Assembly: GCA_965208835.1 (NCBI GenBank)
Contig: OZ242358.1
Span: 4,320,001-4,384,000, forward strand
Origin: Candidatus Latescibacterota bacterium
GTDB taxonomy: Bacteria; Latescibacterota; UBA2968; GCA-2709665
Length of the DNA stretch: 64,000 bases
Reading direction: 5' to 3'
Shown here: positions 2,791-64,000 of the stretch, piece after piece
How positions within the stretch are numbered: the stretch's first letter is position 1
Layout: every line of letters starts with the position of its first letter
Made by a program: the position numbers and the translations under genes
Notes under the pieces: generated by a model
Database searches by the model: none
The model's input: only the letters and a program-made list of their open reading frames with translations
What the model was told of the DNA's origin: nothing

Positions 2791-2818
2791 TTTGAAATTC
2801 TTGTACTTCTCTCGCCGA

Positions 2819-2867: not shown

Positions 2868-2897
2868 CTCGGGCCGCGTGCCGGGACCACGCATACT

Positions 2898-2932
2898 AAA
2901 GAGGGCCAAAGCATTAGCCTCGGCCCTCTTTT
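2898..2932. terminator. bidirectional intrinsic terminator between convergent genes
   Basis: AAAGAGGGCC (2898-2907) / GGCCCTCTTT (2922-2931) stem with A/T tails. Confidence 0.65.
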
Positions 2933-2970
2933 CCTATTGCGGTGTAATTTGACGTTATTGCCGCGCCGCT

Positions 2971-42976: not shown

Positions 42977-43060
42977 GTATTCTCTCCGATCTGTACCGGG
43001 GGATACCTGCAACTCGAATGATCCTGATCCACGGCGAGTGTCGCCCCGCGTGTAGCGCCG

Positions 43061-43915
43061 TCAGACAGATTTCTCGGCCGCCGCCGTTACGACCGGTTCC
43101 GGTTCAGCCGGTGGATCCAGCGGTGTCCCTTCACGTTTTGCGATCTGATTGAACCACCACAATCCGATTATGGCCAGGACGATGCCACACGCGTTCAGCC
43201 ACCACGGAAAGGACACCAGGTTATTGAAATCATCCATCGGCCCGAATATCTCGTATCGCGCAATCGTCAATGCCAGGAAATTGTTGATCGCGTGCCCCGC
43301 GATGGCGGGCAACAGGGAACCCGTTTGAATCACCCAGAACGCAAACACAGACCCCAATACAAACGCAGCCGGAAATTGCCACGGGTTCAGATGGAATAGA
43401 GCGAAAAGCAGTGCGGACCAAAAAACGGCGAGGCTTCGGCGCTGGTTGGCCAACAGCCCAATCAGAATGACGCCCCTGAACAACACTTCTTCGATAAGTG
43501 GAGGCTGGACCGCCAGGTTATAAAAGGCGAAAGCGTAAGGCGTTTCCTTCCAAACCAGATCCCGGAATATCTCCATCATCCATTCAGGCATTGGAATCAG
43601 GTAATGTACACCGCGTTCCAAAATGGATATGGTGATCGACAAACCAACAGTGGCCACCGTAAGCGACGGGTAGAGTTTCCACGGTACCGTATTAAAGAGA
43701 AGGATGTCGGACCAGAGCCGGTCAGCTCGGCGCCGGGCGTAAACAATCACGAGAACGAAACTGACCAATATCGTTAGGGTCTGCACGTACGAATTGGACG
43801 CTAGATCATAGTCGAGTAATGTGCCCGAAATGGCAAGGAGCACCAACAATCCGAACAGGATCAGCAGTAATAGGGCCACCAGCCAGACGGATTGCTTCAA
43901 ATTCGGATACGCCAT
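43061..43915 (-). CDS. CPBP family intramembrane metalloprotease, tandem paralogue
   Basis: EEVLFRG, FALFH, HAINN; starts MAYPNLKQ with a GGAGG RBS. Confidence 0.9.
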   Translation of the reverse strand: MAYPNLKQSVWLVALLLLILFGLLVLLAISGTLLDYDLASNSYVQTLTILVSFVLVIVYARRRADRLWSDILLFNTVPWKLYPSLTVATVGLSITISILERGVHYLIPMPEWMMEIFRDLVWKETPYAFAFYNLAVQPPLIEEVLFRGVILIGLLANQRRSLAVFWSALLFALFHLNPWQFPAAFVLGSVFAFWVIQTGSLLPAIAGHAINNFLALTIARYEIFGPMDDFNNLVSFPWWLNACGIVLAIIGLWWFNQIAKREGTPLDPPAEPEPVVTAAAEKSV

Positions 43916-44475
43916 GTAATCCCTCCCTTTTGGGCGATCTGATGAACGTGGATCCAACGACCGTGCATAGAAGCACTGACGGTGGAAGTCCGTGCGTTTG
44001 CGGCTCTGACGAACGCCATGCAGCAGTCGCATTCGATGTACTGTAAAAGTGTCGAGCAGTCCTTTTCGAACTGCAAAATGCAAGCCAGATTTGAACAAGC
44101 GAATAACTTGATGTATATAAAGTATTTATTAAAGATGGTGCGGCACTTTGAAGAGAAGCGGATGTGTAGCGATATGCGTCTCGACGCTTCAAGGAAGATG
44201 CCGGTACGCCGGCGCGGACGAGAGATGAAACCCGTGTCTGCGGGCTTTTTTTGGTAGCTGGAACGCGCGCGTTAAAATGCGATGCATTTTGCATCGAATG
44301 GCGCATTCTGCAACCCCTGGCGCCGGCCGAATGACCGAGGCGTCGCGCGCCGAAGACAAATACCTGACACGGCGATGAATAGCGCTGACACGTGATGGAT
44401 TTTGGTGCGGACCAACAGGGTAGACCAAAAAAAATCCCGCTCCATCCCCCGCTTAATCCGTGATGAGCTACTTAG

Positions 44476-44864: not shown

Positions 44865-45365
44865 CTACTCCCGGCTCTCCTTCACGGATTCCCAGATCGG
44901 GTAATGAACTTCCGCCCGTTGAAACTCTCTCTGCAGCCACTGGCTGAATAAAATGTCGCGAATTTCGTTTGAAACGCGTTCGTCAAGGATTGCCGGAAAG
45001 TTCCGTTGCAGCATATACAACGCGAAACCGCCCGGCGCTTTCTCCGGTCCGAATAACTCACCTGGAGAGCCGGCAAACAGGCGGGCGGCAATGCCTTTGG
45101 GTAACTGTTCTCGCCGCACCCTGCCCAGATACCCGCCGGCAAGGCGGGTGCGCTCATCCTGTGAGAACTCCCGTGCCATTGCGCAAAAGTCGCCACCTTC
45201 CTCAATTGCCTGAAGTCCGATCTCATCGATCACGCCCCTGTCACTATGGAATATCCAGTTCACCTCCGCCTCGTCGAAATCCAGCGTGTGCTGCGCGAAG
45301 TACGGTTCGATCCTTCCGTCCACGACTTTGTCGGACAACGCACGCTCCAACCGTTTCGCCCGTGT
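44865..45365 (-). pseudogene. 5'-truncated parvulin-type peptidylprolyl isomerase of the kind found beside peptidase-ABC transporters
   Basis: GGDFCAMAREFSQD..T..AGGYLG, GELFGP, EIRDILFSQWL; in-frame stop just upstream, no good RBS, N-domain absent. Confidence 0.7.
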
Positions 45366-45644
45366 TCACGGACATCAAGCGATTACACAATGAGGTTGCG
45401 GTGACGACTGCGTGGCATGGTTCTCCCGTTTACTAACTGATGCGAGAACCGTGTACATCGAAATTGGGAGATTCTTATACGATTAATGGACACATTTCGG
45501 AGATAATTCAAGTGTTGGCGACCGCCTGAATTATTGTTATTTTGACTAAGATTCCGACCCAGAAACCGCTTCTAGATTGCCTTGTGGATGACTCTAACGA
45601 GAGAATCTCATTTCCGAGGAATTGAAAAACGGAGAGCTATCCAG

Positions 45645-48569: not shown

Positions 48570-48667
48570 TTGGTTACGAGTTCATTCCTGTTCAACGTTG
48601 GCAACCCTACTGATCAAATCCACACATATGTGTTTTTAAATCATAGTTCACCATCCAGAAAATTCCG

Positions 48668-48695
48668 TTGGCAAAAAAGTTCAAGTTGATATACT
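48668..48695 (+). promoter_or_regulatory. promoter for the SIR2-STAND gene
   Basis: TTGGCA-N16-TATACT with extended -10 TG; AAGGAGA RBS before the TTG start. Confidence 0.55.
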
Positions 48696-48724
48696 GAGCG
48701 CCTTTATTTTGCAAGGAGATAAAC

Positions 48725-51700
48725 TTGGATTTTCCTGACAATTTGATCGAGACGATAAGTTCCGGGAACTGCGTACTCTTCTTGGGCGCTGGAGCTGCAC
48801 GTGAAGCCGGTGCCCCCGTCGGCAATGAACTTGCGACACTACTGGCAGACAGATTCGAAAAGCACGATATCTCTACACATAATTTGCGAGAATTCGTAGA
48901 TGTATTAGAAACGACTTCCGGAGTTGATAGACAGGAAATCGACAAAGCAATTGTAGAAACACTTCAAAAAACATCACCGTCAAATGCCCATCTTTTTCTA
49001 CCGGGTTTTGTTTGGCAAGCAATTTTCACCACTAACTATGATCGATTAATCGAAATTGCTTACGACATTTATCGAACTTCGCGAGGTGAGCCACCCTTAC
49101 AAAGGTGCAATGTCGTAAATGGTCTCCAAGATCAAGTGCGGTTAGACAATCGTTCGTCCGTCAACCTGTACAAATTGCACGGCTGCATTTCGTCAATAGG
49201 ACAAGGCAATCCATTGGTTTTGTCTTCGAGAGATTATAGGAATACTCGCAAGAAACGTCAGCGGATGTTGCGGACATTGAAAATGTTAGCGGTAGAACAT
49301 TCTATTCTGTTCATCGGCTATTCGTTCGCGGATCAATACTTGAGTGAGTTGTTGGATGACATTCAGCAAGAATCTCCGTATCATCACCACCGAACGATGT
49401 TTCTTGTAATTCCCGAATTAACGGCGAGTTATGAAGAGTATTTCCAATCCCGGAACTTTAAACACCTGTCTGGAACATTTGGTCAATTTTGCGAAAGTCT
49501 TTCGGAGCTTGTCGAGACGGAGGCCAGAAAAAAAGCACTTACTTCGAGGATTTCTTCTGTACAGACTGTTGGAGATCGCTCAGCTTCAATTCCTACGAGT
49601 CTTAGAGTATCTTTAGACTCGCAATTGGAGATATTCCGACCCGAAGGCAGCTTTAATAGGAACCCAAAGAGATTCCTATCAGGTTTTCCACCATCCCTAG
49701 ATGACTTGAAGAGTCGGAATGATGTAACACGTGATCAACAATTCGAGCTGACCGAAAGTGTCCGAAAGGCACTGCGTACGGAGGCCTACCTTAGGCCAAT
49801 AGTGATGGTACTTGGAGCGGGCGGCGCTGGGAAGAGCACTCTTGCTGCAAGAGTTGCTTACGATATCGCAGATCAGCGGCTGGCGATTTCATGTCGGCTG
49901 AAGAATCCAGAGCAATGGAATATCGATGAAATTGTAAACTTTGCGGACAGGATTCAAGCACCGGTGCTCTTCGTTTTTGATGGAATTGAAGTGCGAAGTT
50001 GGCTTCGAGCGACAAAGGATCTTCGTCAAGCATTGACAGTCGCACGCGTAAACGCCACACTGTTGCTATCATGCCAAAAGGCAGTTTGGAACGAATGCAA
50101 AGCTAAGATGGGCAGCCAAGATATCGAGGTGTTTGATCTCCAGGATCGCCTCTCGGAAATTGAGGCCGCTAGCTTGATAGAAAAATTGACCGAAGCGAAA
50201 CTGTTGACCACGGACGCGAAGATACGCCAGCGGGAAGTCTCGAATATTGTAAATGAATGCGACGGTCATCTAGTGGCGGCGCTACTGCAAATCGTGCAAA
50301 GCGGCAAATTCAAGGCTATTGTACTCGGTGAATACGGGAATTTGTCGCATAGAGCCCAAAAGGCATATCAATTTGTCGCTCTACTACACCAACATCGCAT
50401 TTCGATTCCGGATTATCTGCTCAATTCGGTTAGCACCAACAATTGGGATATTTTCGTTGATCAAGTTATTCGCGAAGAGTCTGAGCTTGTAATTATACAA
50501 GACCTTGACGCCACATCCGGCAGACTAAGGTTCCGGAGTAGGCATCCTTTGATCGCAAGGACGATAATCGACGCCACTGTGCCAAAATTTGAAGACAGAG
50601 TGAGGATGTATCGGCGGATTTTCGCGGAGTTAGCGGCGTCAGCTGAAGACCGATCATTTGTTCTTACACTATTGACGACCGAAAGCGTTAGACGAGAGAT
50701 TCGCGAGGAACAGTATTTGGAAGAATTCTTCGATCGTGCGTTGGATCTCTTTCCCGATGATCGGGCTCTAATTCTTCAATTTGGGCGCCACGAAAACAAC
50801 GCAGGGAACTACGAAAGAGCGAGGGAGATTTTGGAATGGGGGAAAAGCATCAACCCAAGAGACAGTCACATACTTCACCAACTTGGCGTCTGTGCTCAGC
50901 GCCGCGCGAGGCGCGTGAAAGAGAAAATCGACCCTCTATTACATGACTCGTTGATCCAGGAAGCCAGGTATTATTTCCGGCAGGTCCAAGAAATCGATCC
51001 AATTTCACAATACGGATACGTCTCGGAGGCTAGGTTGGCTATAAACCTCGCTAGAAATGAAAAAGATCAGGTCCAGAAATTCGCGCTGATTTCTGAAGCA
51101 GAATCGATCATTCGTAGTGGCCTACTTCTTGTAAGGGAAGACGACCACGACATTTTGAGAGGTTGCGAGGCAGAACTATCCGACGTGGCCGGAGATACCA
51201 GTGAAGTGCTCCATCGACTGTGCGCTTTGGACGAAAAAGAAACCTTAGGATACGGGTCCTTATATCATCTTTGGGCAGCTTGTCTTGTTCGTGTGGGAAA
51301 TGTTGACGAAGCAATTGAAGTGATCAAGCGTGGCGTTAAGGACTTCCCGGGCGACGAGATGCTAATTCAGTTGATGCTTCAGATTCTCGAAGGATTTCTA
51401 TTTCGGGCTCGCAGTCGGGATGTTGCTAGTGAGTTTATCGGATATCTCCAGCGAGAGACAGAGAACATGAATATATGGATAGTCTTCCTTAAAGGCGTAG
51501 TGGAACTCTACGACACTCAATATAGGTTAGCAATGGAGTCATTCATGGAAGTGCGTCGACGTATGAACTCTCGAGCGTCAACGCGAATTCGGGATTATCT
51601 TAGGGACGAGTCCGGACACGAAATACAAAAGAGGGGGATCATTGAAATTGGACGATATGGGCGACCTTGGATAAAGGATGTAGGCACTGGTATTAAGATG

Positions 51701-51820
51701 CCCGTCGACAATTCTCAATTCTGGGAAAGGTCCGGCAAACCTCGCGATTGCGTCTTTCTGATGGGATTATCCCTTATGGGTCCAAGAGCATCGATAATCG
51801 AGAAATATCAGAATGGCTAG
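48725..51820 (+). CDS. SIR2-STAND NTPase-TPR protein (Avs/AVAST-like antiviral sensor-effector)
   Basis: LFLGAGAA, FTTNYD, YKLHG, LFIGYSFAD (SIR2); GAGGAGKS and VLFVFDG (P-loop); RSRHPLIA; TPR helices. Confidence 0.82.
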   Translation: MDFPDNLIETISSGNCVLFLGAGAAREAGAPVGNELATLLADRFEKHDISTHNLREFVDVLETTSGVDRQEIDKAIVETLQKTSPSNAHLFLPGFVWQAIFTTNYDRLIEIAYDIYRTSRGEPPLQRCNVVNGLQDQVRLDNRSSVNLYKLHGCISSIGQGNPLVLSSRDYRNTRKKRQRMLRTLKMLAVEHSILFIGYSFADQYLSELLDDIQQESPYHHHRTMFLVIPELTASYEEYFQSRNFKHLSGTFGQFCESLSELVETEARKKALTSRISSVQTVGDRSASIPTSLRVSLDSQLEIFRPEGSFNRNPKRFLSGFPPSLDDLKSRNDVTRDQQFELTESVRKALRTEAYLRPIVMVLGAGGAGKSTLAARVAYDIADQRLAISCRLKNPEQWNIDEIVNFADRIQAPVLFVFDGIEVRSWLRATKDLRQALTVARVNATLLLSCQKAVWNECKAKMGSQDIEVFDLQDRLSEIEAASLIEKLTEAKLLTTDAKIRQREVSNIVNECDGHLVAALLQIVQSGKFKAIVLGEYGNLSHRAQKAYQFVALLHQHRISIPDYLLNSVSTNNWDIFVDQVIREESELVIIQDLDATSGRLRFRSRHPLIARTIIDATVPKFEDRVRMYRRIFAELAASAEDRSFVLTLLTTESVRREIREEQYLEEFFDRALDLFPDDRALILQFGRHENNAGNYERAREILEWGKSINPRDSHILHQLGVCAQRRARRVKEKIDPLLHDSLIQEARYYFRQVQEIDPISQYGYVSEARLAINLARNEKDQVQKFALISEAESIIRSGLLLVREDDHDILRGCEAELSDVAGDTSEVLHRLCALDEKETLGYGSLYHLWAACLVRVGNVDEAIEVIKRGVKDFPGDEMLIQLMLQILEGFLFRARSRDVASEFIGYLQRETENMNIWIVFLKGVVELYDTQYRLAMESFMEVRRRMNSRASTRIRDYLRDESGHEIQKRGIIEIGRYGRPWIKDVGTGIKMPVDNSQFWERSGKPRDCVFLMGLSLMGPRASIIEKYQNG

Positions 51821-52956
51821 GCGATTGGTCTAATTCGATGGAATTATTCTGCGGAGATTGGATCCCGGGCTTTCCGGTTAGAAATATACATCGAGGTGCT
51901 TTGATGTATTGATTCGACCCAAGTTATACAATTACGTAAATCTCGTTGCCACATACGCGCATAGGAGAGTAACAATCATGCCGGCGGACCCGACACATCG
52001 GACAACGCATGAGAAGCATGAAAAACCTACCCCACAGTTGATGCAACTGCAGACCATGGAACGCTTGGAGCATCCGGAGCAAGACGATTCACAACTGAGT
52101 TCTGACCGACTGCCGAAATCGGATGCAAGCTCAAGCGGTTGAAACTCGGATGCTGACATTTCGCTGAACAGCCATCCAGATAGAATAACTGTGCAAGAGT
52201 GAGGAACTCGACGCGCAAATGAAGGCACTTGAATACAGATTCCGGGACTCCCCACTCAACATAGATCGTGTACACGAAATCGTACGGGTATGGCTCTCCA
52301 AAAGACACCCCATTCTAGCCCAACTTGAACGATAATGAAGTCGTAATACAAGAATTGCGGTATAGACTTTGTTCTCTTCAAGTGCAGATTGACAACTAGG
52401 AGGATCGACTAAAGGAAAAACAGGCATAATTTACTAAGATGAAAGATGAATGCCTGTTTCACGTTATTCAACGGCGGTTGCTCGGTCATCAGGAAGTTCG
52501 TGCGAGATTCGCCCCCCAAGTCCATTCTGCTACTTTGCACTTTGGATCGCAATCCCAATGCCCGATTGGATCATTATACCGAGCGGTTAACCGGTAACGC
52601 TTCGCACGTGCCGACAGACCGGGAACCGGCCTCTTGTTCCTGAAGGTCGCGTGTGAGACCGCCACAACCAAAGACCCTGAGTGTCCTTGCCTCCAACATC
52701 GGTTCTCCACCTCATCTTGTCCTTTCCGGCCAATATACGAAGATTAACTCAGTGTGGAAGTTGCCTTACTCTATATTCGCAGGTAGGTGGTTTGATACTA
52801 AAACCAACGACCCTAGTCGTTGCGCCAAAGGATCGCCTGTACTCTTCACAGTTCTTCCAAATCGATGCGTCGTAGTGCAAGGTCCGTACAGAATGTTACG
52901 GTTACAAATTGGTGTGTATTTCCTCAATTTCACGCATATCTTCCCGGGATTTCAAA

Positions 52957-54315
52957 ATGCGGGAACGTATTTGCTTATATAAACGCTTTGAAGGACGTTT
53001 ATCCGTTAATCCATCGATTACGTCCAACATAATTTCGTACCGCGGGAACCGCGATGCTCCTGGATTTCGATGGATGAAATACAAGGAGGGCTTCTCAACT
53101 AGCCTAGTCGAAAGCCTGATTGGAGAAATTCAGCCTTCATCGGTCTTGGACCCGTTTTCGGGCATAGGTACCACGCCACTTGTAGCGGCCGGAATGGGAC
53201 TGCGAGCTACTGGCATAGAGATCCTGCCTGTCGCAGTACTTGTGGGGCGGGCGATTGCGCTCGCTGCCAATGGATTGCGTCGCGATGCGTTTATAAAGGT
53301 CGCATCTGCCATGCTGAAGCACCTCAGGACCGAAAAACAAGCGGGGTCGGAACATGCCTTTCCCCATGTCGGCATTACGGAATATGCTTTTCCGTCAGAG
53401 ACAGAACTCGAACTTGCCAAAGCGCGTGAATTCATTAGTATCGTCGACGACCACAGTATACAAACTATGCTTAACCTCGCATGTATGAGTGTTTTGGAGT
53501 CTGTGAGCTACACAAGAAAAGACGGACAGTATCTGCGATGGTACAACCAATCACGTCGGAATGTGAAGACACGGGCAAAGAAGAGTTCGATCCCACGGTT
53601 CATAAACGCGCTCGATTTTCGCCTTTCCCAGATGGCAGAGGACATCATACCGTTGACTGTACGTTATGGGAGCGGTGAATCTAACCTGATTGCTGGGTCG
53701 ACTCTTGAGCACCTTCGGCGTATGCCTGAGGCTTCGTTTGACTTGGTAATCACATCTCCACCCTACCCAAACCGTTACGACTATACAAGGATTTATGCGC
53801 TGGAACTGGCTTGGCTCGGATATAATCAAGATGCAATCAAGTCCCTACGCCAAGAATTGTTGTCTGCCACAGTCGAGAACAGATCCAAGATAGATTGGCT
53901 GGTGAAAAATTACCGCCACGCATCACTTTTGCCATCGGCAATCCGAATGTATGAACAGCAAAGTGCAATGCACGAAGCGTTGAATATACTGCGGTCGTAC
54001 AGAAAAGAGTTAAGCAATCCAAATGTAATTCGTATGCTTGAAGGATACTTTATTGAGATGGCTATAGTAGTTGCCGAATTAGGACGAATTGTGAGTCCCG
54101 CAGGGAACGTAATTGTCGTAAGCGATAATGTTCAATACCATGGTGAAGAATTCCCAGTGGACTTCATCCTGTCCGACTTTGCAGAACAGTCGGGATTCGA
54201 ATGCAAACACATCTGGACGCTACCACGTGGAAAGGGTAACTCGAGCCAACAAATGGGCAGATTTGGACGCCGGGAGTTGCGAAAGTGTGTTTACTGGTGG
54301 TCAAGATTGAAATAA
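52957..54315 (+). CDS. N4-cytosine DNA methyltransferase, AvaI/BsoBI-system-like
   Basis: RWMKYKEGFS, LDPFSGIGTT, TSPPY.NRYDYTR.YALEL, RGKGNSSQQMG..GR..LRKCVY; no cognate endonuclease ORF adjacent. Confidence 0.8.
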   Translation: MRERICLYKRFEGRLSVNPSITSNIISYRGNRDAPGFRWMKYKEGFSTSLVESLIGEIQPSSVLDPFSGIGTTPLVAAGMGLRATGIEILPVAVLVGRAIALAANGLRRDAFIKVASAMLKHLRTEKQAGSEHAFPHVGITEYAFPSETELELAKAREFISIVDDHSIQTMLNLACMSVLESVSYTRKDGQYLRWYNQSRRNVKTRAKKSSIPRFINALDFRLSQMAEDIIPLTVRYGSGESNLIAGSTLEHLRRMPEASFDLVITSPPYPNRYDYTRIYALELAWLGYNQDAIKSLRQELLSATVENRSKIDWLVKNYRHASLLPSAIRMYEQQSAMHEALNILRSYRKELSNPNVIRMLEGYFIEMAIVVAELGRIVSPAGNVIVVSDNVQYHGEEFPVDFILSDFAEQSGFECKHIWTLPRGKGNSSQQMGRFGRRELRKCVYWWSRLK

Positions 54316-54395
54316 GGTTTCTTGGATCACCAATTGAAAAACTCCGTGGCTCCAACTCGGCCACAAGAAGAGCTAATAAGCCGGTTACTGACAAC

Positions 54396-55499
54396 ATGTA
54401 CGGAACACAATCTCTGACGAAGGTCGTATACCTTTTGGGTGCGGGTGCATCCCACGCCTGCGTCTCGCACGTTGGTTGCCCACATGGAATATTAATGAAG
54501 CATCTCGGACAACCCTTAACGGAAAAACTGCGTACGTTGCTGCAAGATGGATATTTGGACGATGACAGCCTAAACAACCTAGTGAATTCAGTTATTGATG
54601 AGACAACAGACTTTGAGCAAGTAATTACGTTTTTGGGTGAGGCCCCTTCCGAAATCCATCGTAGATTCGCCAACGAGATGAAGAGTGCTTTTGAAGCTGT
54701 GCTTCGGAGTCAGCTGCAACGCATACGTACAGAAATCAAAGACGATCCCATTGAACTATATAAGGTGTTAATCGACTTGTACAATATTGAGGAATTTCCG
54801 GAAAAACTCGAAGGAATTATTACGATAAATTACGACGAATACATCGAAAAAGCTATTGAACAGGTTAGCACTTGTTCTATTGACTTCGGATTCCGTGTAC
54901 AACCATCCAATCCAAACACCCTTAAACTTAGGCTGCTGAAACTTCATGGTTCCTTTGGTTGGCAGGACACTTGGCCGACTGCACGAGGATGTGATGGCAA
55001 TTCAACCCTTTGGATTCCGCCTGGTATTCAGAAAGCAAAACAGGCATATCCATTCAATGTCTTGTGGGGGTTGGCTCGTGAGATGTTATCTTGCAATGTC
55101 TTGCGCATCATTGGATGTCGCTTGGGACCGAATGATTGGGATCTGATTTCATTGCTGTTCACAATGCGTCACGTCAATTACGAAGAACGTCCCAGGATCG
55201 AAGTCATTGATGCTCCATCTCATGTGGAAGATTTGAAGCAGACATATCCTTATCTAGAACTAAGGTCAATATTGGAAGTTGACCGAATCGGCAGTAAATT
55301 TGTCGCGGAGTTTACGGGAACCTCGCCTCGCAGATTTGACGAGCTCGACGAAGAAGAACGAGCCGAAGTAATAAGAGCAGCTGGAACCGACCGCAATTGG
55401 TTCGAACTTTGGTTGAAATTGCTAGCTGAGACACTTTACGTTGAACTTGGTTCTGTTTTAACTACAACGAAAACGGTCGAAGCGTTCTTGGAATCCTAG
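54396..55499 (+). CDS. stand-alone SIR2-like protein
   Basis: VYLLGAGAS, ITINYD, LLKLHGS, IPPG..K, RIIGC.L..ND. Confidence 0.8.
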   Translation: MYGTQSLTKVVYLLGAGASHACVSHVGCPHGILMKHLGQPLTEKLRTLLQDGYLDDDSLNNLVNSVIDETTDFEQVITFLGEAPSEIHRRFANEMKSAFEAVLRSQLQRIRTEIKDDPIELYKVLIDLYNIEEFPEKLEGIITINYDEYIEKAIEQVSTCSIDFGFRVQPSNPNTLKLRLLKLHGSFGWQDTWPTARGCDGNSTLWIPPGIQKAKQAYPFNVLWGLAREMLSCNVLRIIGCRLGPNDWDLISLLFTMRHVNYEERPRIEVIDAPSHVEDLKQTYPYLELRSILEVDRIGSKFVAEFTGTSPRRFDELDEEERAEVIRAAGTDRNWFELWLKLLAETLYVELGSVLTTTKTVEAFLES

Positions 55500-55514
55500 G
55501 AGGAGCGAGTAATT

Positions 55515-56678
55515 ATGGAAAAGGAAGTTATTTCTTGGTCAGTGAAGGAATTGAGGGGACAATTTAGCTTGATAAGCTTTCCAGAATACCAGCGAGAGCC
55601 TAATTTGTGGACACTTGTCGAAAAACAACGGCTAATCGACTCGATGATTAGACACTTTGACATTGCGTCTCTATATCTCTATCAGCATAACGATGGTGCT
55701 ATGGACTGTGTGGACGGGCGTCAAAGAATAGGGTCGATAATGTCGTTCTTGGGTGAGAACAACGCCAACAGTGACACCAACTTTCCGTTTCGGCCATTGA
55801 ACGAAATCCTTCAAGAAGAATGTCCACCGTACCAGTCGTTAGCAGGCAAGACATTTAACGAGATCGAACAGCTGCGGAAAACTCACGATGACCCTACGGC
55901 AGCAAAGTTCGTGGATACGTTCTTAGGTTATCCGCTAACCGTGATCATGTTGTCTGACAGCAAGGCTGGGGAAGAGTTCAATCTTCAATTTACCAGGTTG
56001 AACTTGGGGACAATAATCAACTCTGGTGAGAAACTCCATGCTATGGTTGGTGACCTCAGAGATGCCTGTTTCAACCGTCTTGGCAATCATCCCTTTCTCG
56101 AAGGCACGAACATACCAACACGACGTTTTGCGCGTGAGCAGGTGGCAGCACAGATTCTAGCTCAAGTTTTTTCGTTCAGTGCCAACGGAGTATATACGAG
56201 GATTAGGCATTTTGACCTTCAACGGATATTTAAGGAACATCGTAAGTTCACCGACGACCAAGAGGAATTGGTTGAACAAATACGCAAGCTTTTTGATCTC
56301 TTGCGTGAAGCCTTTATTGGAATCGAAACTCTTCGAAATCGAGCGATAACAGTTTCGACTGTTCTACTCGCATGGCAATCGAAATTGGATGGCTCAGGAC
56401 AAGCATCGCAACTCGCGGAATTCATTGACGAATTCGTACATCGACTCAATTGGCAAGTTAAGAAAGGGCTGGACCTAGACCGCGAATACCTCTACCTAAC
56501 GACGTTTCAACACAACATCACACAGGCTTCCTCTGAGAAGTCTTCGATTGAAGCACGCGCTAAGACGTTGCAAGAGGAATTCTTTCGATGGCGCTGTGAC
56601 GGCGAACTGAAAGGTGACAGTGATTGGAGATTAAAGAATCCAACTAGTGATCCGGGTAGAGAATCCCGTTCATCGTAG
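55515..56678 (+). CDS. DUF262 (ParB/Srx-like, GmrS-type) domain protein
   Basis: PEYQRE..W...KQRLIDSM, VDGRQR, FTRLNLG; AGGAGGAG RBS overlaps the SIR2 stop; no HNH motif seen. Confidence 0.8.
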   Translation: MEKEVISWSVKELRGQFSLISFPEYQREPNLWTLVEKQRLIDSMIRHFDIASLYLYQHNDGAMDCVDGRQRIGSIMSFLGENNANSDTNFPFRPLNEILQEECPPYQSLAGKTFNEIEQLRKTHDDPTAAKFVDTFLGYPLTVIMLSDSKAGEEFNLQFTRLNLGTIINSGEKLHAMVGDLRDACFNRLGNHPFLEGTNIPTRRFAREQVAAQILAQVFSFSANGVYTRIRHFDLQRIFKEHRKFTDDQEELVEQIRKLFDLLREAFIGIETLRNRAITVSTVLLAWQSKLDGSGQASQLAEFIDEFVHRLNWQVKKGLDLDREYLYLTTFQHNITQASSEKSSIEARAKTLQEEFFRWRCDGELKGDSDWRLKNPTSDPGRESRSS

Positions 56679-56961
56679 AATGGAAGTTTAGCCGGATAAT
56701 TGGTGGTATTTGGAAGACCGGTAGCGTCTTGTGTTCGTTTATTGGCCGCATTCGGATGGTTGATTTCGGTCGTGGGAGGAGAATTTATGAGTTCTCGATT
56801 ACGGTTAAAGGTATTATAGAGAAGGGCAAGGATTATCAAAGATCCGTCGGTCCGCGATTCTCCCGCTCTGTTGACGATCCATGTATCTACCTTCAGCGGC
56901 ATTCGGGACCTCCTCAGTTTGTGTTTGTACGGCAATCCACCCTCTGCTCTGGCCCGTTACA

Positions 56962-57837
56962 TCAATTCTCAATGTCTTCACGCTTGTTGATGAGATACGC
57001 GGCAAAACACGCGCACGCTCCGAACATGAAGACGGCATCATTGATGTCTACTTCGGGAGCGCTTTCGGCAAGCAGCGCATGGCGGATGCCGCTTTCATCG
57101 TTTGTATACCCGTACAAATTGATGAAAGCCGCCTTCAAAGCTGGATGATTTAAGACACCAGCCGATTCGAGAGATTTTAGCGCTGGCCCAAGCGACTTGC
57201 CTGCTTTGGGGTCTATCGTCCGTGCCACGGATTCGACCGCGTGGATACATTCTCTAACTGTATCTGCAAATCGTCCCTCGTTGATAGCGGTAGCTGCAGC
57301 ACGCATATGGCTCCTTGCGCCTAATGGAGCCTTCTCTGCGATCGTTTCGATTGCCTTCTGCGTGGCTCTACCATATTCCTCACTGACGCGGGGTATGACT
57401 GTTGGTTTACCTCCGATTTCTTGGATAGCATAGGCGAGACGACCTTTTCGAAATGCATCTTCCAATACTTGACGAAGCATAGCGGAACAGTGTTTGTGAC
57501 TAACCATAAACTCGACTAACGTAAGGAGTTCGTGATATTTCCCTTCGAGAATTATATCTCTCAAATACCCACGGTGGCGAATAGGGGTATGTTGTATTTG
57601 GTCGTGGGGCCATTGATGAACCATGAAAAAGTAGCTACGAATAATCATAGAGATAGATGCGTCTTTGTAATAACGATCGTCATCAATCGCTTCATGACGA
57701 ATCGCCGTATCAACAACGAGCCAAACTATGTGTCTGAAATCCTTGGAAACATACCCCAATCGTATAATTCCAGGCAGTGGCGCAAGTCCCTCTCGCTGAG
57801 AGAATGTAAGCCTGCGCTTTTCCTCGCTCGGTTTCAT
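56962..57837 (-). CDS. AbiJ-NTD4 domain protein with a HEPN-like C-terminus
   Basis: LTFSQREG N-terminus; TVRECIHAVES, LYGYTNDESGIRHA. Confidence 0.75.
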   Translation of the reverse strand: MKPSEEKRRLTFSQREGLAPLPGIIRLGYVSKDFRHIVWLVVDTAIRHEAIDDDRYYKDASISMIIRSYFFMVHQWPHDQIQHTPIRHRGYLRDIILEGKYHELLTLVEFMVSHKHCSAMLRQVLEDAFRKGRLAYAIQEIGGKPTVIPRVSEEYGRATQKAIETIAEKAPLGARSHMRAAATAINEGRFADTVRECIHAVESVARTIDPKAGKSLGPALKSLESAGVLNHPALKAAFINLYGYTNDESGIRHALLAESAPEVDINDAVFMFGACACFAAYLINKREDIEN

Positions 57838-57888
57838 CTCGTCGCTCCTTGAGCTTGTTTCTGAACAATCGGCATCGGCATTTCTCCC

Positions 57889-57916
57889 AATATAAGTTGA
57901 AAACGACTCAAGTCAA
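57889..57916 (-). promoter_or_regulatory. candidate promoter for the AbiJ-like gene
   Basis: TTGACT-N16-TATATT. Confidence 0.45.
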
Positions 57917-58214
57917 AATCTGGCAATCCAAGTTAGTCGGACATCTGATCACGCGTAGAACATCAAGCTGCAATTGTGGATTGTGGCTGAACTGCCTCGT
58001 CCGTCGGGTGACTTACGATTGAATCGTTCCCATTGGATCGTATGAGTTATGGACGACCGAAACAAGACACTAGCGGATTCGACAAGATTTGGGCTCTAAG
58101 GATGATTGTGACTACGCCTGATGCGAAGGTTATTCCATGTGAGTCGTCCCATTCCTGTTGCCGACCGGGCATATGACAATAGACTTGGAGCACGCAACCG
58201 CTGTGCACGCAGCG

Positions 58215-59303
58215 AAACGCACGCCTGTTAAGTTTCTTCGGACCCAAGCGTCTCCGCCGCTTCTGCCAATGCCGCCATCGATGTGCCGTCCCGCGACACA
58301 TTGCACATGTCCCGCAGCCTGTTCAGCCCGATGGGCATCTTGTAATACTTGCAGATCATTCCCAGACACGCCGCCCCGCAGTCGGACTGATCGTTTTGCT
58401 TCAGGAGCGGAAAACGAAACGACGTTGATGTCTTGTGTTGTTCATCAGATGTCCTTGCGATCGAGACATCTGATGGGACGCCGTCAGCCGCAACGGCGTT
58501 GTTCACTACCGCCGCTTCCGCGTGGACGTGACTTCCGCCCGATTGAATCTCGCGGGACTGAGACCTGTCCGATCCAGATTCCCGGTACAATTGCCGGGCT
58601 ATTTCCCTCAAGGGCGTAAATTCAGGAATTGAATGTTCCAGGCTTTCCAGGTCGGATTTATCCAGAAAATAGATCACGCAGTGGACCCGGCTGCGGATCG
58701 TCCGTGACTCACCACCCTTGGAATCCGTCTCTTCGAAAAAATCCCCGGCGTCCAGAGTATGCGAGCTGCCGTCCTAAAAAACACGTCCAACCTGCCTCCG
58801 CCCACTATGCAGAACCGGCCGAGCGAGCGACCGGGTTCGACAAGCGTCGTTCCTTCTGAAACCTCTTCGCGTTTAAAGCTCTGAAAAAGCTTTCCCATGT
58901 CCGCCCCGGAAACGGACCCCTTCAGAAACCTCGTGAAGTCCCGATACGCGATATTTGCGACCTGATCCTTCAGATAGGCTTCCAGCTCCGGCTCCGCCTT
59001 CAACACCTTGAAGAACCCTTCGCGCGACACCTTCAGCACAACGGAATCCTCCGCGGCTCGCACCGTCGCCCGATGTCCCTGCGCCGCCAATAGCGCACCC
59101 TCGCCGAAATGATCGCCGCAATAGAGAAATCCTACGGTCTCAGGTTGACCGTCCGCATTCGGCTTGATCACTCGCAGCCGGCCCGACTTTACCATGTGGA
59201 ACGCGTCGCCAGGCGCCCCTTGTTCAATTACGACCTCTCCGAAACGAAACCGAACGGATTCCGGCTGATTCGACAACTGAGAAAAGCGGGTGAAGACGTC
59301 CAT
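58215..59303 (-). pseudogene. 3'-truncated peptidase-domain ABC transporter (two cNMP-binding domains and part of a C39 peptidase)
   Basis: GDHFGE..RATVRA (cNMP 1); after a frameshift near 58775, TLDAGDFFEE..RTIR (cNMP 2); KQNDQSDCGAACL (C39 Cys). No catalytic His region, TM domain or ATPase follows. Confidence 0.82.
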
Positions 59304-59653: not shown

Positions 59654-60526
59654 TTATGGTTCCTGGTGCTCGGAAATGCGTTGGGTCTCTTTCGAAATCC
59701 GGCTAAACCACCACAGTCCAAGTGCTGTGAGCGCTATCCCTGATACACTCCACCACCAGGGATTGAATGCAACTTCGTTAATGTCTCCTGAAATGTCCAG
59801 ATGATGCGTGTAAAAATGCAGCATGGTCACAGCGATGAGGTTGTTCAGAGCGTGCCCGAACAACGCGGGCAACAGTGACCCGGTACGGATTACCCACCAG
59901 GCCAATACCAACCCGGATAGAATGATAGGCACAAGATGCCAGAGGTCCAGGTGCAACATACCGAAAAGAACTGCTGACCAGACAATTGCATGAATTCTTG
60001 TATAGTTCGCCAACAGGCCGCTCAGGATTATCCCCCTGAAAAGCAACTCTTCGCCCAATGGTGCGACTAAGACTGCCCCGAACAACGCAGACAAGAAGGA
60101 TGTTCTGCTCAAGATTCCCGAACGATAGACTTCCTGCATCCACTCCGGCATAGGTACGATGCCAATCACGACTTTCATCAATTCAGAATCAAGCATCCCC
60201 AGGCCCACTACTGAAATTGCAACGCAGGGCCATACCCGCAAATCGAAATCTCTGTTGAAGAGACGCCGAACGTAATCCCAATCCAGATCGGTTCGACGGT
60301 ACACGTAACCCAGAATTACGGCGAAGCTCACCAATGCCAGGGTTCCCAATGCGAAATCGTCCTCGAACTGCCATCCCGAAATCGCCGCAGCCAATGCCAG
60401 CACTACGAACGCGAGCATGAGCAGAAACAGTAACCAGATCGTCTGCTTCAAGTCCGGATATGCCTTAGAGATCTCGTCAGAATCTGTGGCCGTCATAGAT
60501 CGATCGCAGTCTGCGTTTACTGGCAT
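59654..60526 (-). CDS. CPBP family intramembrane metalloprotease
   Basis: AYPDLKQ, EELLFRG, FGMLH, HALNN. Confidence 0.9.
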   Translation of the reverse strand: MPVNADCDRSMTATDSDEISKAYPDLKQTIWLLFLLMLAFVVLALAAAISGWQFEDDFALGTLALVSFAVILGYVYRRTDLDWDYVRRLFNRDFDLRVWPCVAISVVGLGMLDSELMKVVIGIVPMPEWMQEVYRSGILSRTSFLSALFGAVLVAPLGEELLFRGIILSGLLANYTRIHAIVWSAVLFGMLHLDLWHLVPIILSGLVLAWWVIRTGSLLPALFGHALNNLIAVTMLHFYTHHLDISGDINEVAFNPWWWSVSGIALTALGLWWFSRISKETQRISEHQEP

Positions 60527-60849
60527 GATTCGTCCTGCTTTCTTTTCGTACCGTCAGGCCGTCTCAGTCCGTCGGTGACGTTAGAATCCTGGCCTGGTTC
60601 AACTCCGCCGGGACCCGACTCAAATAACCCGCGGACTGCGGTCACCATTCGCGCTGCAGCTACATAGAACTTTTTTCGGAAGACTATAAACGAGACTGCC
60701 TGAACAACCAGGACCGCCATCAGGATCGCAAGATCGAATTGAATGACGTATCTGAGAATCAGCAAAGCAGGCACAACGGAGAATAACACGTATAATACGG
60801 CCGCGAGAACCCAACCTCTCCACGTTCCCCCCGAGAGGACATCCTTCAT
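60517..60849 (-). CDS. small two-TM membrane protein (candidate immunity or accessory protein)
   Basis: GGAGG RBS, two hydrophobic helices, overlaps the next start. Confidence 0.6.
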   Translation of the reverse strand: MKDVLSGGTWRGWVLAAVLYVLFSVVPALLILRYVIQFDLAILMAVLVVQAVSFIVFRKKFYVAAARMVTAVRGLFESGPGGVEPGQDSNVTDGLRRPDGTKRKQDESCQ

Positions 60850-60948: not shown

Positions 60949-61863
60949 TTAGCCGCCATCTCCTGGCGTATCACCCGTCTCAATCCTATTGGAGCTGGCT
61001 AATTGAGGTTTGTTCGATATCCGATGAAACCACCAGAGTCCAAACGCCGCCAATATAACGCCAGCGCCTGTCCACCACCATGGATTGAAAACCACGTCGT
61101 TCAGGTCCTCCGAGACCGCGACATAGGGAACGTCAACGCGCATAAACGTCGTGGATAGCAGATTGTTAAATGCATGTCCAACAACCGCAGGCCACAGAGA
61201 TCCCGTGCTTATCGTCCACCACGCAAACAAAATGCCATATATAAAGGCAGGCGAGAATTGCCATGGGTTCAGATGACTCACGCCAAACAGTATCGATGAC
61301 CAGATAATCGCACAAGTCCTGGAATGGTTCGACAACAGGCCAAACAAGATTATACCTCTAAAGAGAAGCTCTTCGACATACGGTGCGACAATGGCGGCGT
61401 GGAAAAGGGCTGACGGGAAGGAAGTTTCGCGCCCAACCGTTGATTTAATGAGTTCCTGGAATAATTCTGGCATAGGAATTACGGAAATTACAACTTTGTT
61501 CAATTCAAAGAGAACCAACGACGTTCCGCAAATCGACATTGCGACGCCGGTCCAGAGTTGCCAATCAGAACTTGCATTCCCTGGAAACAAGAGACTTGCC
61601 CACCGTCGATCCGTACGACGGGAAATGTACAATAATACTAGCAGATAAACTGCCAATTTGGTAATGCCCAGCAGGTAGTTGTTATGTTCAAGGGGTTGGC
61701 TACTGATGATACTTGCTACGTAAATGAGAATTCCGAATCCCGACTCCGTCAGGGTCAACAGTACAAGCAACCAAATGGCCTGCTTTAGGTTCGGATACGC
61801 CATTGAGCTCTCGCAAGATTTCCTATTCGGGTTTAACTGATCGCCGCCCGCGCGTTCAAACAT
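60949..61863 (-). CDS. CPBP family intramembrane metalloprotease
   Basis: MAYPNLKQ (alternative start 61803), EELLFRG, FGVSH, HAFNN. Confidence 0.9.
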   Translation of the reverse strand: MFERAGGDQLNPNRKSCESSMAYPNLKQAIWLLVLLTLTESGFGILIYVASIISSQPLEHNNYLLGITKLAVYLLVLLYISRRTDRRWASLLFPGNASSDWQLWTGVAMSICGTSLVLFELNKVVISVIPMPELFQELIKSTVGRETSFPSALFHAAIVAPYVEELLFRGIILFGLLSNHSRTCAIIWSSILFGVSHLNPWQFSPAFIYGILFAWWTISTGSLWPAVVGHAFNNLLSTTFMRVDVPYVAVSEDLNDVVFNPWWWTGAGVILAAFGLWWFHRISNKPQLASSNRIETGDTPGDGG

Positions 61864-61900
61864 GTCACCTCCCGGTTCCTTTCAATAGCGTCTGGCTGTC

Positions 61901-62521
61901 TCAATCTGGCGGGCATTGCCCTTCAGGCCAGACAAAGCAACCAGGTTCAGACGGGTGATCTTGAATCAAGGCATCCTTTCCATATCGGCGTAGCTTCAAG
62001 AAAATCATGATATCTCCAGAACACACAGAGACTGTCCCGCTGAAAAGCAACAGAGACCAGATGGCGGGATCCAACCAGAACAACAAACCGGCAGCCAGTG
62101 TCGTAACGATCAATGGAAAGATCAGGACGATTCGGTGAACGCGAATTGTCAGTGGCCTATCGTAGTGACAATAGAAAGCCGCAAATTTCCAATTAGCCCC
62201 GAATCGTATCGAATTGAATGGCACCTTGCCCCATTGCAACGCGGCAACGGCGTGCAATGCTTCGTGAACTGCAATCAGCAAGACAACACTTCCGATTAAC
62301 ATCCACCTTTCTACGTTTTCCAGACTGAACTGAATCTTCAATTGCGACAAATGTGCCCCCAAGAAGCAAAAATTGAACGCCAAAAAAAACAAGATGATTC
62401 CAAGAGTGATCGCATTGACCTTGCTCACACGGATTTCGATGACCTCCCGGCCCATCTCCTTGGACGGCTCTTGACCTGCGGAGCACATTTCATTTTCCGC
62501 CGACATCGGATTCTCCATCAT
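61901..62521 (-). CDS. DUF3267 family putative membrane zincin peptidase
   Basis: HEALH (HExxH) in a TM segment, FG.NW...FYCH, CSGD, IQDHPSEPG. Confidence 0.8.
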   Translation of the reverse strand: MMENPMSAENEMCSAGQEPSKEMGREVIEIRVSKVNAITLGIILFFLAFNFCFLGAHLSQLKIQFSLENVERWMLIGSVVLLIAVHEALHAVAALQWGKVPFNSIRFGANWKFAAFYCHYDRPLTIRVHRIVLIFPLIVTTLAAGLLFWLDPAIWSLLLFSGTVSVCSGDIMIFLKLRRYGKDALIQDHPSEPGCFVWPEGQCPPD

Positions 62522-62632
62522 TGTAAATTACACGAAACCGGACCGCCAGGCATTCGATCTGAGGTGTCCTCATCCTTCCTGCTTCGACAATCTAAGGAAA
62601 AGCCCCTCGAAAGCCCGCCTGGAAGTCCGTAG

Positions 62633-62672
62633 GTCCGGTTTCCACCGAACGTGCTTTCGGTGGAAACCAGAC
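62633..62672. terminator. long hairpin between the precursor genes and the protease genes
   Basis: GGTTTCCACCGAA / TTCGGTGGAAACC perfect 13-bp stem, extendable; no clear U-tract. Confidence 0.55.
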
Positions 62673-62715
62673 CCGTCAACCTTGTGACTCTTAACTGCTC
62701 ATCTCTATCAACGAA

Positions 62716-63021
62716 TCAGACTGACAGATTCGACAGGCCGTCGGCCATGCCACTGGTCAGTTGATCGTAGGCATCCGAGACGAAATTTACCGCATCCTTA
62801 GCCCTATCGTAGTACCAAATGGCGGCTTCAACGACATCCTGAGGTCTTGTCACTGCTACGACCACGAGCCCTGCCACAATCCCTACGACGACGGGATGTC
62901 CTCCCGAGACTTGTGCCATCGTATGCTCACTCAGATCTTCCCGTCTTGCAGGCAACGCCTGACAGGAGATGAGCACGCTGTCTCTATCGGTCGCCGCCGG
63001 ATAAGCCAATGCTTGTGTCAT
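62716..63021 (-). CDS. double-glycine leader peptide precursor P3
   Basis: AGGAGG RBS; leader ends EDLSEHTMAQVSGG; 60-aa core with a hydrophobic N-terminus. Confidence 0.75.
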   Translation of the reverse strand: MTQALAYPAATDRDSVLISCQALPARREDLSEHTMAQVSGGHPVVVGIVAGLVVVAVTRPQDVVEAAIWYYDRAKDAVNFVSDAYDQLTSGMADGLSNLSV

Positions 63022-63240
63022 GATGTCCTCCTGGAGAGTTATTCCTATTTATCGTTTTTCAACCCAATGGCCTGAATCTCGTGTTACGGAGACGGTGCCT
63101 GTTTATGGAGGCTATTGGGTTCGAGAATCGTGCTTTGCTCTACGGTTTCGTAAGAGCTTCGTGACCATATCTGCGAAGTCGCCGGCATCGGCAGTCGAGA
63201 TCGAGAAACAGAACAGGTTACGTCCTGGGCGGCGTGACCA

Positions 63241-63441
63241 TCAGTCCGTTTCGTCGAAGTATTCGAAAATGGCTTCTGCAATTGCGCTCGCCATTGCCGT
63301 CAAATTAGTGCCCATCCCGATGGGTATGAACCCTCCCGATGTCGTCGCCATCTCATAACTGGCTAATGCGATTTCCCGTCCTGGGAGTTGCGCACAAGCC
63401 ACAGAACCGCGCACTGGCATTGATTGAATTCGATCGGTCAT
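63241..63441 (-). CDS. double-glycine leader peptide precursor P2
   Basis: GGAGGTG RBS; 37-aa leader ending EMATTSGG; core FIPIGMGTNLTAMASAIAEAIFEYFDETD. Confidence 0.75.
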   Translation of the reverse strand: MTDRIQSMPVRGSVACAQLPGREIALASYEMATTSGGFIPIGMGTNLTAMASAIAEAIFEYFDETD

Positions 63442-63578
63442 TTTGTCACCTCCTATCTTCACCCTTTCAGAAATTCGTAAGTATGCCCTGTGGACTTCGC
63501 TTGCAGATCATCAAAGACCACGCATTTGCAGCGGTGATCGCAAAGGGAATTTGCTTTGCGTCAGTTCAGGTTCCAAGG

Positions 63579-63782
63579 TCATTCCTCGTCGTCGAAGTAC
63601 TCGACAATGGCCTCAGCAATTATTTTGCTAACGTACAGGATCATGAAGGAAGGACCTGTGGGTAACATGAGACCTCCCGATGCATTCATCATCTCACGAC
63701 GTGCCAGGCCGATTTCCCGTCCTGGAAGTCGGGTGCAGGTCACGGCGCCGTGTACTGGCATCGATAGAACTCGATCAGTCAT
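63579..63782 (-). CDS. double-glycine leader peptide precursor P1, paralogue of P2
   Basis: AAGGAG RBS; 37-aa leader ending EMMNASGG; core LMLPTGPSFMILYVSKIIAEAIVEYFDDEE. Confidence 0.75.
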   Translation of the reverse strand: MTDRVLSMPVHGAVTCTRLPGREIGLARREMMNASGGLMLPTGPSFMILYVSKIIAEAIVEYFDDEE

Positions 63783-63860
63783 TTCGTCAACTCCTTTCTA
63801 CTCGACAATTTCGATGTACAGGTGAGTTTCGCAATATCTGGTCGGAATCCTCCCAAACGG

Positions 63861-64000
63861 TTACAGCGCCGGACCTGAAGCGTCCGCTTCCGGCGTGTTC
63901 GTGCCCAGGTCTATGCCGAACAGGTCCCTCAGGATGTCCCGCCAGCGTATGGCGCCACCGGAGACCTGCGCAGTCTGTCCTGTACTCAAGTCCTCCGTCC
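63861..64000 (-). CDS. double-glycine leader peptide precursor P0, 5'-truncated by the window edge and absent from the ORF track
   Basis: Manual translation from 63998: TEDLSTGQTAQVSGG-AIRWRDILRDLFGIDLGTNTPEADASGPAL*. Confidence 0.75.
   Translation of the reverse strand, partial: TEDLSTGQTAQVSGGAIRWRDILRDLFGIDLGTNTPEADASGPAL

Follow-up and report, generated by a model that had tools for sequence, protein, structure and literature searches.

Here we describe an array of four small genes, P0 to P3, at one end of a 64,000-nucleotide (nt) stretch of a Candidatus Latescibacterota genome (a single contig of 5.18 Mb; the stretch, hereafter the window, comprises its positions 4320001-4384000). We consider it probable, with some reserve, that these genes encode precursors of exported, probably unmodified peptides of the class II microcin or bacteriocin kind, which would carry a leader of a new family, leave the cell through a C39 peptidase-containing ABC transporter and be matched by cognate immunity genes. 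In the present genome the array appears orphaned, with a defence island standing in place of most of its export genes.

The four genes are co-oriented and arranged head to tail (Table 1), with every frame intact, and each ATG is preceded at 5-8 nt by a Shine-Dalgarno-like site (AAGGAG for P1, AGGAGGTGA for P2, AGGAGGA for P3 and AAGGAGGTGA for P0). A first-pass annotation of the window had described four co-oriented genes with leaders ending in SGG (strong ribosome-binding sites and leaders of 37-41 amino acids, aa, being given for the three complete ones), shared motifs and acidic cores free of Cys, all of which is borne out. It had also expected the array to continue past the window; instead, the array ends at P0, of which only 64 bases lie outside. 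The leader profile found no fifth match in the 18 kb beyond P0 (searched in the neighbouring 20-kb stretch), and the genes that follow there are divergent, one GtrA-like and the other a TMEM260-like membrane gene. Genome-wide, the profile matches P0-P3 at E-values of 1e-13 to 1e-19 and no other gene. Orthologous arrays are present in 14/14 other genomes of the genus, and a contig from an independent study differs from P3 and the adjoining sequence at 5 of 1562 bases (99.7% identity). The ratio of nonsynonymous to synonymous substitution rates (dN/dS), calculated for this frame over the whole gene, lies between 0.21 and 0.51 in 14 of 15 orthologue pairs; the single P2 pair reaches 0.84, resting on 19 changes. 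Judged by these comparisons, chance open reading frames (ORFs) are excluded for practical purposes. Public runs holding parts of the stretch include sponge metagenomes; that no RNA run stands among the 20 listed carries no weight either way on expression.

The leaders of P0-P3 consist of two parts. The final 12 positions follow the consensus known for double-glycine signals, L(-12) S x x E(-8) L(-7) x x I(-4) x G G, and the 20-25 residues at the N-terminus are an extension specific to this family. In an alignment of 36 leaders, M1, L-19, G-2 and G-1 are invariant, L-12 is conserved in at least 90%, and P-18 and R-16 are common. Position -11 is mostly A or S, position -7 mostly M, position -4 is A, T, V or I, and position -8 is E in the P1/P2 type and polar in P0 (Q) and P3 (T). 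The motif C-x2-LP(G/A)R is common to the leaders of P1, P2 and P3, with Pro at the Cys position in P0. Thus, the first-pass description of a Cys-containing leader holds for P1-P3 but not as a universal feature, since Cys occurs in 25/36 aligned leaders and never in those of the P0 type. The possibility that this Cys marks a lipoprotein signal was rejected: no hydrophobic signal region precedes it and the upstream residues are unlike the lipobox consensus. The double glycine occupies the last two profile positions in 76 of 93 distinct precursors, in line with its predicted conservation, and the remainder end in G-A, G-T or D-G-like pairs.

No curated Pfam or NCBIfam model names this leader, which agrees with the first-pass view of an undescribed family. 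Against Pfam, P0-P3 gave nothing beyond a chance-level viral match of P3 (E 0.2); against NCBIfam, none of the four matched above cut-off and weak matches came from P2 only. The NHLP (TIGR03793) and Nif11 (TIGR03798) leader models found no match in P0-P3 at E up to 1, nor in four peptides of relatives at E up to 0.1, and these four matched no other Pfam or NCBIfam leader model either. A word-indexed search with P1 returned nine proteins of 52-99% identity, in which the leader is conserved and the core more variable, whereas a protein-atlas search with P1 gave no usable match. A leader-only profile (A3, built from the 36 sequences) was run against 1.84 billion representative proteins and gave 69 matches at E up to 0.001, 6 of them at E up to 1e-10. 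The 50 matches that were fetched are all 54-160 aa long, with the leader mostly N-terminal or else placed after a short extension; 12 of the 19 unfetched ones, longer proteins with at least three short matching stretches, are taken to be spurious.

The distribution of the leader is narrow. Across 168 genomes of the phylum, the profile matches in 42, nearly all from one order: 17/21 genomes of the family to which the window belongs and 23/31 of a sister family, together 40/52 other genomes of the same order, compared with 1/115 genomes of all other families (a partial match, E 2.7e-4). By these matches, the family that the leader defines is restricted to a single order of Latescibacterota. The lineage is as little studied as the first-pass annotation had supposed, with five related records being metagenome-assembled genomes of Candidatus Latescibacterota or Gemmatimonadota bins. 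Literature searches found nothing linking Latescibacterota to double-glycine peptides and, for Latescibacterota with microcin or bacteriocin, nothing on this family; the supplements of sponge surveys of biosynthetic gene clusters could list such clusters as generic 'bacteriocin' entries.

In relatives, a conserved operon of ~20 kb starts with the peptide genes; neither this nor the loss of the exporter here had been noted in the first-pass annotation. Throughout the genus, the peptides are followed by DUF3267, CPBP and 110-aa membrane-protein genes, a full-length exporter, an HlyD gene and a PpiC-like gene, with additional CPBP genes, mostly two, at the end. This order is uninterrupted in 14/14 other genomes of the genus (5/5 and 9/9 loci), and the interval between peptides and exporter always contains 3 to 6 genes for membrane proteases or small membrane proteins. 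In other genera, the leader was matched in 19 of 20 stretches fetched, and a near-full-length exporter lies within 20 kb in 17 of these 19 loci, is in three pieces in one and is missing from one. The predicted co-occurrence with C39 transporters is therefore found in 14/14 genomes of the genus and in 17-18 of 19 loci elsewhere. The exporter carries cNMP_binding, Peptidase_C39, ABC_membrane and ABC_tran domains in this order, and Gln303, Cys309, His382 and Asp398 (positions of alignment A4) are invariant in 13 aligned exporters; we take Gln303 to be the C39 oxyanion Gln and the other three to be the catalytic triad. A locus-linked orthologue from a relative scores 501.4 against TIGR01193 ('peptide cleavage/export ABC transporter', cut-off 523.85). 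The HlyD gene comes after the exporter in relatives. Against TIGR04500 ('putative peptide maturation system protein', cut-off 180), the PpiC-like protein scores 87.5 and 79.1 bits, which makes it a relative but not a member. In one relative (locus L045, 7474-13802), three tandem modules precede the exporter, each combining one CPBP gene with a P0-like and a Cys-tailed peptide. In one sister-family genome (L044, 15765-20000), three separate stretches match the locus-linked exporter (residues 20-112, 97-787 and 785-999, with a gap of ~1.3 kb), which is possibly another disrupted one.

Beneath the common leader, the cores differ strongly. Those of P0-P3 are 29-60 aa long and contain no Cys, with net charges of -2 (P0), -5 (P1), -5 (P2) and -4 (P3), and the motif E-A-x3-Y-[FY]-D is common to P1, P2 and P3. 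The P0 core (30 aa) is amphipathic, the P1 core (30 aa) is hydrophobic with an acidic C-terminus, and the P3 core (60 aa) has a hydrophobic helix followed by an acidic helical part according to a low-confidence AlphaFold2 model (16-row alignment; mean predicted local distance difference test score 51, predicted template modelling score 0.21), which gives only rough helices at 26-37, 43-58 and 60-99. As a weak lead, the clusters nearest to P3 in a language-model search are named 'Bacteriocin', at scores of 0.84-0.87, under the 0.9 mark. Across the order, at least 8 unrelated core types share the one leader: P0 (two variants), P1, P2, an ARPR-ending type, a hydrophobic IFPAVVLP type and P3 with its membrane-like helix, besides cores with a C-terminal Cys run and, in the sister family, hyper-acidic cores with a CILPGED start and a SEWWASW end. 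A Pro-x-Gly-rich stretch opens many cores; a Ser/Thr pattern common to the core types is not seen. In the 93 distinct precursors, 75 cores are net acidic, 9 neutral and 9 basic. The first-pass annotation had taken acidic cores as a sign of something unusual, which does not stand: according to a review (PMC10233263), microcins are mostly neutral or anionic.

Two groups of relatives' peptides stand out. Cys-tailed cores (L009 387-662, L011 1942-2205, L019 2114-2383, L045 10688-11074 and 12551-12913, L046 10263-10598) show a hydrophobic helix, then 3-7 Cys and then KK, KR or DD, and their genes adjoin genes for CAAX-protease-like (CPBP) proteins; presumably, the tails resemble C-terminal Cys lipidation motifs processed by Rce1-type enzymes. 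In one sister-family genus (L033-L042, L051), hyper-acidic cores with charges of -7 to -13 start with Cys-Ile-Leu-Pro-Gly-Glu-Asp and have a Trp-rich end. Often, a second, longer peptide with G-I-D-G closing its leader-like part comes directly after such a core; the exporter follows without an intervening CPBP gene.

The membrane-protein genes next to the array include the candidates for immunity. The DUF3267 protein, annotated by Pfam as a putative zincin peptidase and with its HExxH motif kept, is a candidate cognate immunity or processing protein for P3, and CPBP protease A is a candidate immunity protein. In a related contig, P3 and DUF3267 are exchanged together: positions 61884-63188 are replaced by 1255 other letters. 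Across relatives, DUF3267 identity is 71-89% where the P3 subtype is the same and 43-44% where it is the other, a trend that shared ancestry could also explain. Besides that, a related metagenome contig has 1256 extra letters at window positions 60515-60599, between CPBP protease B and the 110-aa gene, which fits the variable number of DUF3267 genes among relatives.

In contrast to the intact operons of relatives, the exporter gene of this genome is a remnant. Its cNMP-binding ORF (58674-59303) overlaps a second one (58228-58677) with the first 57 residues of the C39 domain; the remnant has neither catalytic His and Asp nor membrane domain and ATPase, and scores 33.5 against TIGR01193. Queried with the paralogous exporter described below, tblastn aligned only residues 8-179 at 59294-58788 and residues 307-353, in another frame, at 58416-58276; the PpiC-like protein encoded beside that paralogue aligned with residues 105-256 at 45341-44886. 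A defence island of lower GC content occupies the place of ~3.7 kb that would hold the remainder of the exporter gene, HlyD and the start of the PpiC-like gene. The replacement is directly visible: a 44-kb contig from a sponge metagenome follows the window at 90% likeness or more and joins position 45360 to 58242 via 3720 other letters, as many as calculated for the missing genes. The island ends show no direct or inverted repeats, no integrase was found within the island, and the window holds no tRNA at 40000-64000.

Only one further C39 match exists genome-wide, a 1021-aa protein at 1.58 Mb (within 1568001-1588000) with two cNMP stretches, which is the sole intact C39 exporter. It is followed by an HlyD gene, whose product passes TIGR01843 (type I secretion adaptor), and by a 257-aa PpiC-like gene; the exporter itself passes TIGR01193 (530.7) and is ~59% identical to the locus-linked orthologues of the genus. 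With their cognate exporter and HlyD lost, the peptides would exit only if this paralogue accepts them, so P0-P3 would be either silent cargo or dependent on it. A complex prediction of the N-terminal 445 exporter residues with P1 scored 0.00 in both runs, which had no controls, and speaks neither for nor against recognition. The region of the paralogue (L006, 7767-17241) also contains, upstream of it, transposase-like ORFs together with a CPBP gene and a gene for a TPR protein; one small ORF nearby (L006, 16795-17241) has a leader that ends in RVWGG, unlike that of P0-P3, and a Gly/Pro-rich core.

Table 1 Coordinates of the precursor genes, the neighbouring genes and the defence island (window numbering)
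Feature	Position	Strand	Remarks
P0 precursor	63861-64064 (first 64 bases outside window)	minus	67 aa; 37-aa leader ending QTAQVSGG; leader profile E 2.4e-14
P1 precursor	63579-63782	minus	67 aa; 37-aa leader ending EMMNASGG; leader profile E 9.3e-20
P2 precursor	63241-63441	minus	66 aa from ATG at 63441; 37-aa leader ending EMATTSGG; P1 paralogue
P3 precursor	62716-63021	minus	101 aa; 41-aa leader ending TMAQVSGG
DUF3267 putative membrane zincin	61901-62521	minus	HEALH motif; PF11667, 56 bits, over cut-off
CPBP/Rce1-like intramembrane protease A	60949-61863	minus	PF02517, 74 bits
Small membrane protein	60517-60849	minus	110 aa; tblastn 41-85% identity in relatives' loci
CPBP/Rce1-like intramembrane protease B	59654-60526	minus	domain matches
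Exporter remnant (cNMP-binding/C39 ABC)	58243-59303	minus	frameshift near 58675; ends after ~residue 353
Defence island	45361-58241	no strand	12.9 kb; GC 45-51%
PDC-S32/AbiJ_NTD4 protein	56962-57837		in defence island
GmrSD_N/NsnA-like protein	55515-56678		in defence island
SIR2-like protein	54285-55499		in defence island
Type II methyltransferase	52909-54315		in defence island; 363 bits to PDLC03224
SIR2-STAND NTPase-TPR protein	48725-51820		in defence island
Methylase-like ORF	45582-48569		in defence island; 995 aa
PpiC-like gene, 3' remnant	44865-45350	minus	residues 105-256 of intact paralogue
CPBP protease C	43061-44098	minus	conserved operon tail; counterpart of trailing CPBP gene in relatives
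CPBP protease D	42122-43012	minus	conserved operon tail; counterpart of trailing CPBP gene in relatives

How might the intact system work? In the reading that we favour, the last ~15 leader residues would act as the double-glycine signal (L-12; -8 Glu or otherwise polar; -7 hydrophobic; -4 hydrophobic or small; then GG), and the N-terminal module particular to the family, often C-x2-L-P-x-R, stands in front of it. Cleavage after GG would fall to the C39 cysteine-peptidase domain of the cNMP-bearing ABC transporter, and transporter and HlyD-type adaptor would together export the core across both membranes. The DUF3267, CPBP and 110-aa membrane proteins may protect the producer, and the PpiC-like protein may assist maturation or export. 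Three observations point to this toxin-immunity relationship, namely the membrane genes that always lie between peptides and exporter in the genus, the tandem L045 modules of two peptides and one CPBP gene, and the joint exchange of P3 and DUF3267. A role of CPBP (Abi/CAAX) proteins in bacteriocin immunity has been reported (Kjos 2010 and Lux 2007, cited by PMC9298176). The acidity of the cores is no argument against a microcin, given the prevalence of neutral or anionic microcins, which the relevant passage of PMC10233263 explains by their use of receptors for entry.

Several observations weigh against the microcin reading. The leaders are about twice as long as the signals of class II microcins (37-41 versus 15-19 aa). 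The sole match to a curated bacteriocin family, that of P2 to TIGR03949, the class IIb lactobin A/cerein 7B family (15.3 bits, E 0.013), is under the cut-off of 21.5, and P0, P1 and P3 did not match this model. Sister-family cores reach net charges of -10 to -13, and in several sister-family loci the peptide is followed by the exporter without a CPBP or DUF3267 gene in between; together with the 75 acidic cores, such loci suggest that at least part of the family may be non-toxins. The CPBP protease SilX acts in signal-peptide processing and not in immunity, according to the part of PMC9298176 that deals with it. Furthermore, the likeness of the PpiC-like protein to TIGR04500 hints at maturation steps that an unmodified peptide would not need, and for all members export and cleavage as well as killing and immunity are inferred.

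The main rival, which we hold to be unlikely, is that the peptides act outside the cell as signals or in some other non-toxic capacity (for example cell-cell or symbiont-host signalling, or metal or mineral binding), the exporter's nucleotide-binding domain controlling their release in the way proposed for Nostoc HetC. The exporter indeed has the same cNMP, C39 and ABC architecture as HetC, whose cNMP domain binds ppGpp in vitro, the protein itself being thought to export a signalling peptide, as stated in sections of PMC10986499. The acidic cores and the sister-family loci without an immunity-like gene would also suit such a role, and the poly-Cys C-terminal tails of some relatives resemble metal- or lipid-binding motifs more than pore-formers. 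However, the ORFs adjoining the array in this genome include no two-component sensor gene (the flanks of relatives were not annotated), the constantly intervening membrane genes and the duplication of peptide-plus-CPBP modules as units follow the pattern of toxin-immunity cassettes, and fast modular turnover of cores under one leader is typical of antagonistic peptides. A variant that we regard as very unlikely sees here a non-bacteriocin, order-specific secretion system of sponge-symbiont Latescibacterota. In that case, the exporter's nucleotide-binding domain or the PpiC-like partner would read the C-x2-LPxR module, changing sets of hyper-acidic, Trp-ended or poly-Cys-tailed peptides would be exported for metal or mineral binding or host interaction, and the CPBP proteases would process Cys-rich C-termini instead of conferring immunity.

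Distinctly unlikely, in our estimate, is that P0-P3 are precursors of peptides made by the ribosome and modified after translation (RiPPs), whose N-terminal leader module recruits maturation proteins; in place of an immunity role, tailoring or second-site processing would fall to the PpiC-like protein, the DUF3267 zincin or the CPBP proteases. The leader exceeds the needs of export, and conservation extends to its N-terminal module, with L-19 invariant, frequent P-18 and R-16, and Cys-22 in 25/36; many cores also have a Pro-x-Gly-rich start. DUF3267 keeps HExxH and its zincin annotation, the CPBP proteins match the Rce1-like (CAAX protease) family of Pfam, and the PpiC-like protein is related to TIGR04500, listed among the genes associated with graspetide loci in a portion of PMC8939145. 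Nevertheless, its scores are far under the TIGR04500 cut-off, the ORFs of the operon and its flanks here include no gene of the ATP-grasp, radical-SAM, YcaO or lanthionine-synthetase type, and the tblastn maps of relatives, which used ten query proteins only, show no such tailoring genes. The Cys-free cores of the window and the lack of a conserved Ser/Thr pattern point the same way. Where the first-pass annotation had left the choice between bacteriocin, RiPP and signal, the RiPP thus comes out as the weakest of the three, with no conserved upstream modifying enzyme. That the small ORFs are no genes at all, either chance frames or decaying remnants in a defunct locus, is scarcely credible: the destroyed exporter and the P2 ratio of 0.84 would fit decay, but the four intact frames with strong ribosome-binding sites, the arrays in all 14 other genomes of the genus, dN/dS below 0.52 in 14/15 pairs and the near-identical P3 of another study speak against it.

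The type of system, with double-glycine leader peptides, a C39 ABC exporter, HlyD and CPBP genes, is already known; new are the bipartite leader family of one order of Latescibacterota, the unusual core repertoire and the conserved PpiC-like partner. Class II microcins of Gram-negative bacteria, such as MccV with CvaAB/TolC, also rely on a peptidase-containing ABC transporter and an HlyD-type membrane-fusion protein for cutting and export. The double-glycine signal is cut during export through the membrane-fusion protein and membrane immunity genes are adjacent (as outlined in parts of PMC12219008), while the cores are often neutral or anionic and hydrophobic (parts of PMC12219008 and PMC10233263). 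The present system differs in the extra conserved N-terminal leader module, the N-terminal cNMP-binding domain of the exporter and the PpiC-like gene in the operon. Moreover, immunity proteins of class II microcins are small (at most 216 aa), whereas the candidates here are CPBP and DUF3267 proteases, and those microcins come from Proteobacteria, not Latescibacterota. Class IIb and other multi-peptide bacteriocin loci of Gram-positives with Abi/CPBP immunity (plantaricin, Blp-type) are alike in their tandem double-glycine leader peptides with adjacent CPBP genes, in repeated modules of a peptide pair and a CPBP gene as in L045, and in the weak lactobin A/cerein 7B match of P2. This match, however, is under the cut-off, the cores here are acidic and not cationic, the leader is longer, and the type I secretion adaptor is of the HlyD type, as in Gram-negative systems.

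NHLP/Nif11 systems with NHLM exporters (TIGR03796/03797, TIGR03794, TIGR03896) likewise combine diverse cores with one long double-glycine leader, although NHLP and Nif11 leaders are about twice as long as that of P0-P3. The best equivalog-level match of the exporter is TIGR03796, and cNMP-binding 'bacteriocin-type transport-associated' domains are common to both. Nonetheless, the exporter (575 versus 853, for the paralogue) and HlyD (52.6 versus 156) score under the NHLM cut-offs, the leader models do not match, and no modification enzyme is linked to the array here. HetC of Nostoc PCC 7120 has the same domain order of cNMP-binding, C39 peptidase, ABC membrane and ATPase domains; it has no double-glycine peptide gene nearby and its substrate is unknown, according to sections of PMC10986499, whereas here the presumed substrates are encoded directly upstream.

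Altogether, these data delimit an order-wide leader family that current Pfam and NCBIfam models miss, and would extend microcin-like systems to Latescibacterota symbionts. The pairing of a cNMP-domain, HetC-type exporter with adjacent putative substrates makes the role of the nucleotide-binding domain tractable. In addition, the exchange of exporter for island is recent and well resolved and has left toxin-like and immunity-like genes behind, which offers a natural case for studying the speed at which orphaned peptide genes decay, or their possible takeover by a paralogous exporter.

Around the start of the array, an Rfam search (E up to 1) of positions 1-3200 of the neighbouring 20-kb stretch (L003, in which P0 starts at 2064) gave one sub-threshold match to a small RNA (20 versus 49.5 bits). 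At 64354-64520 in window numbering (minus strand), where no obvious gene end is seen, two tandem strong terminator-like hairpins stand ~290-460 nt upstream of P0.

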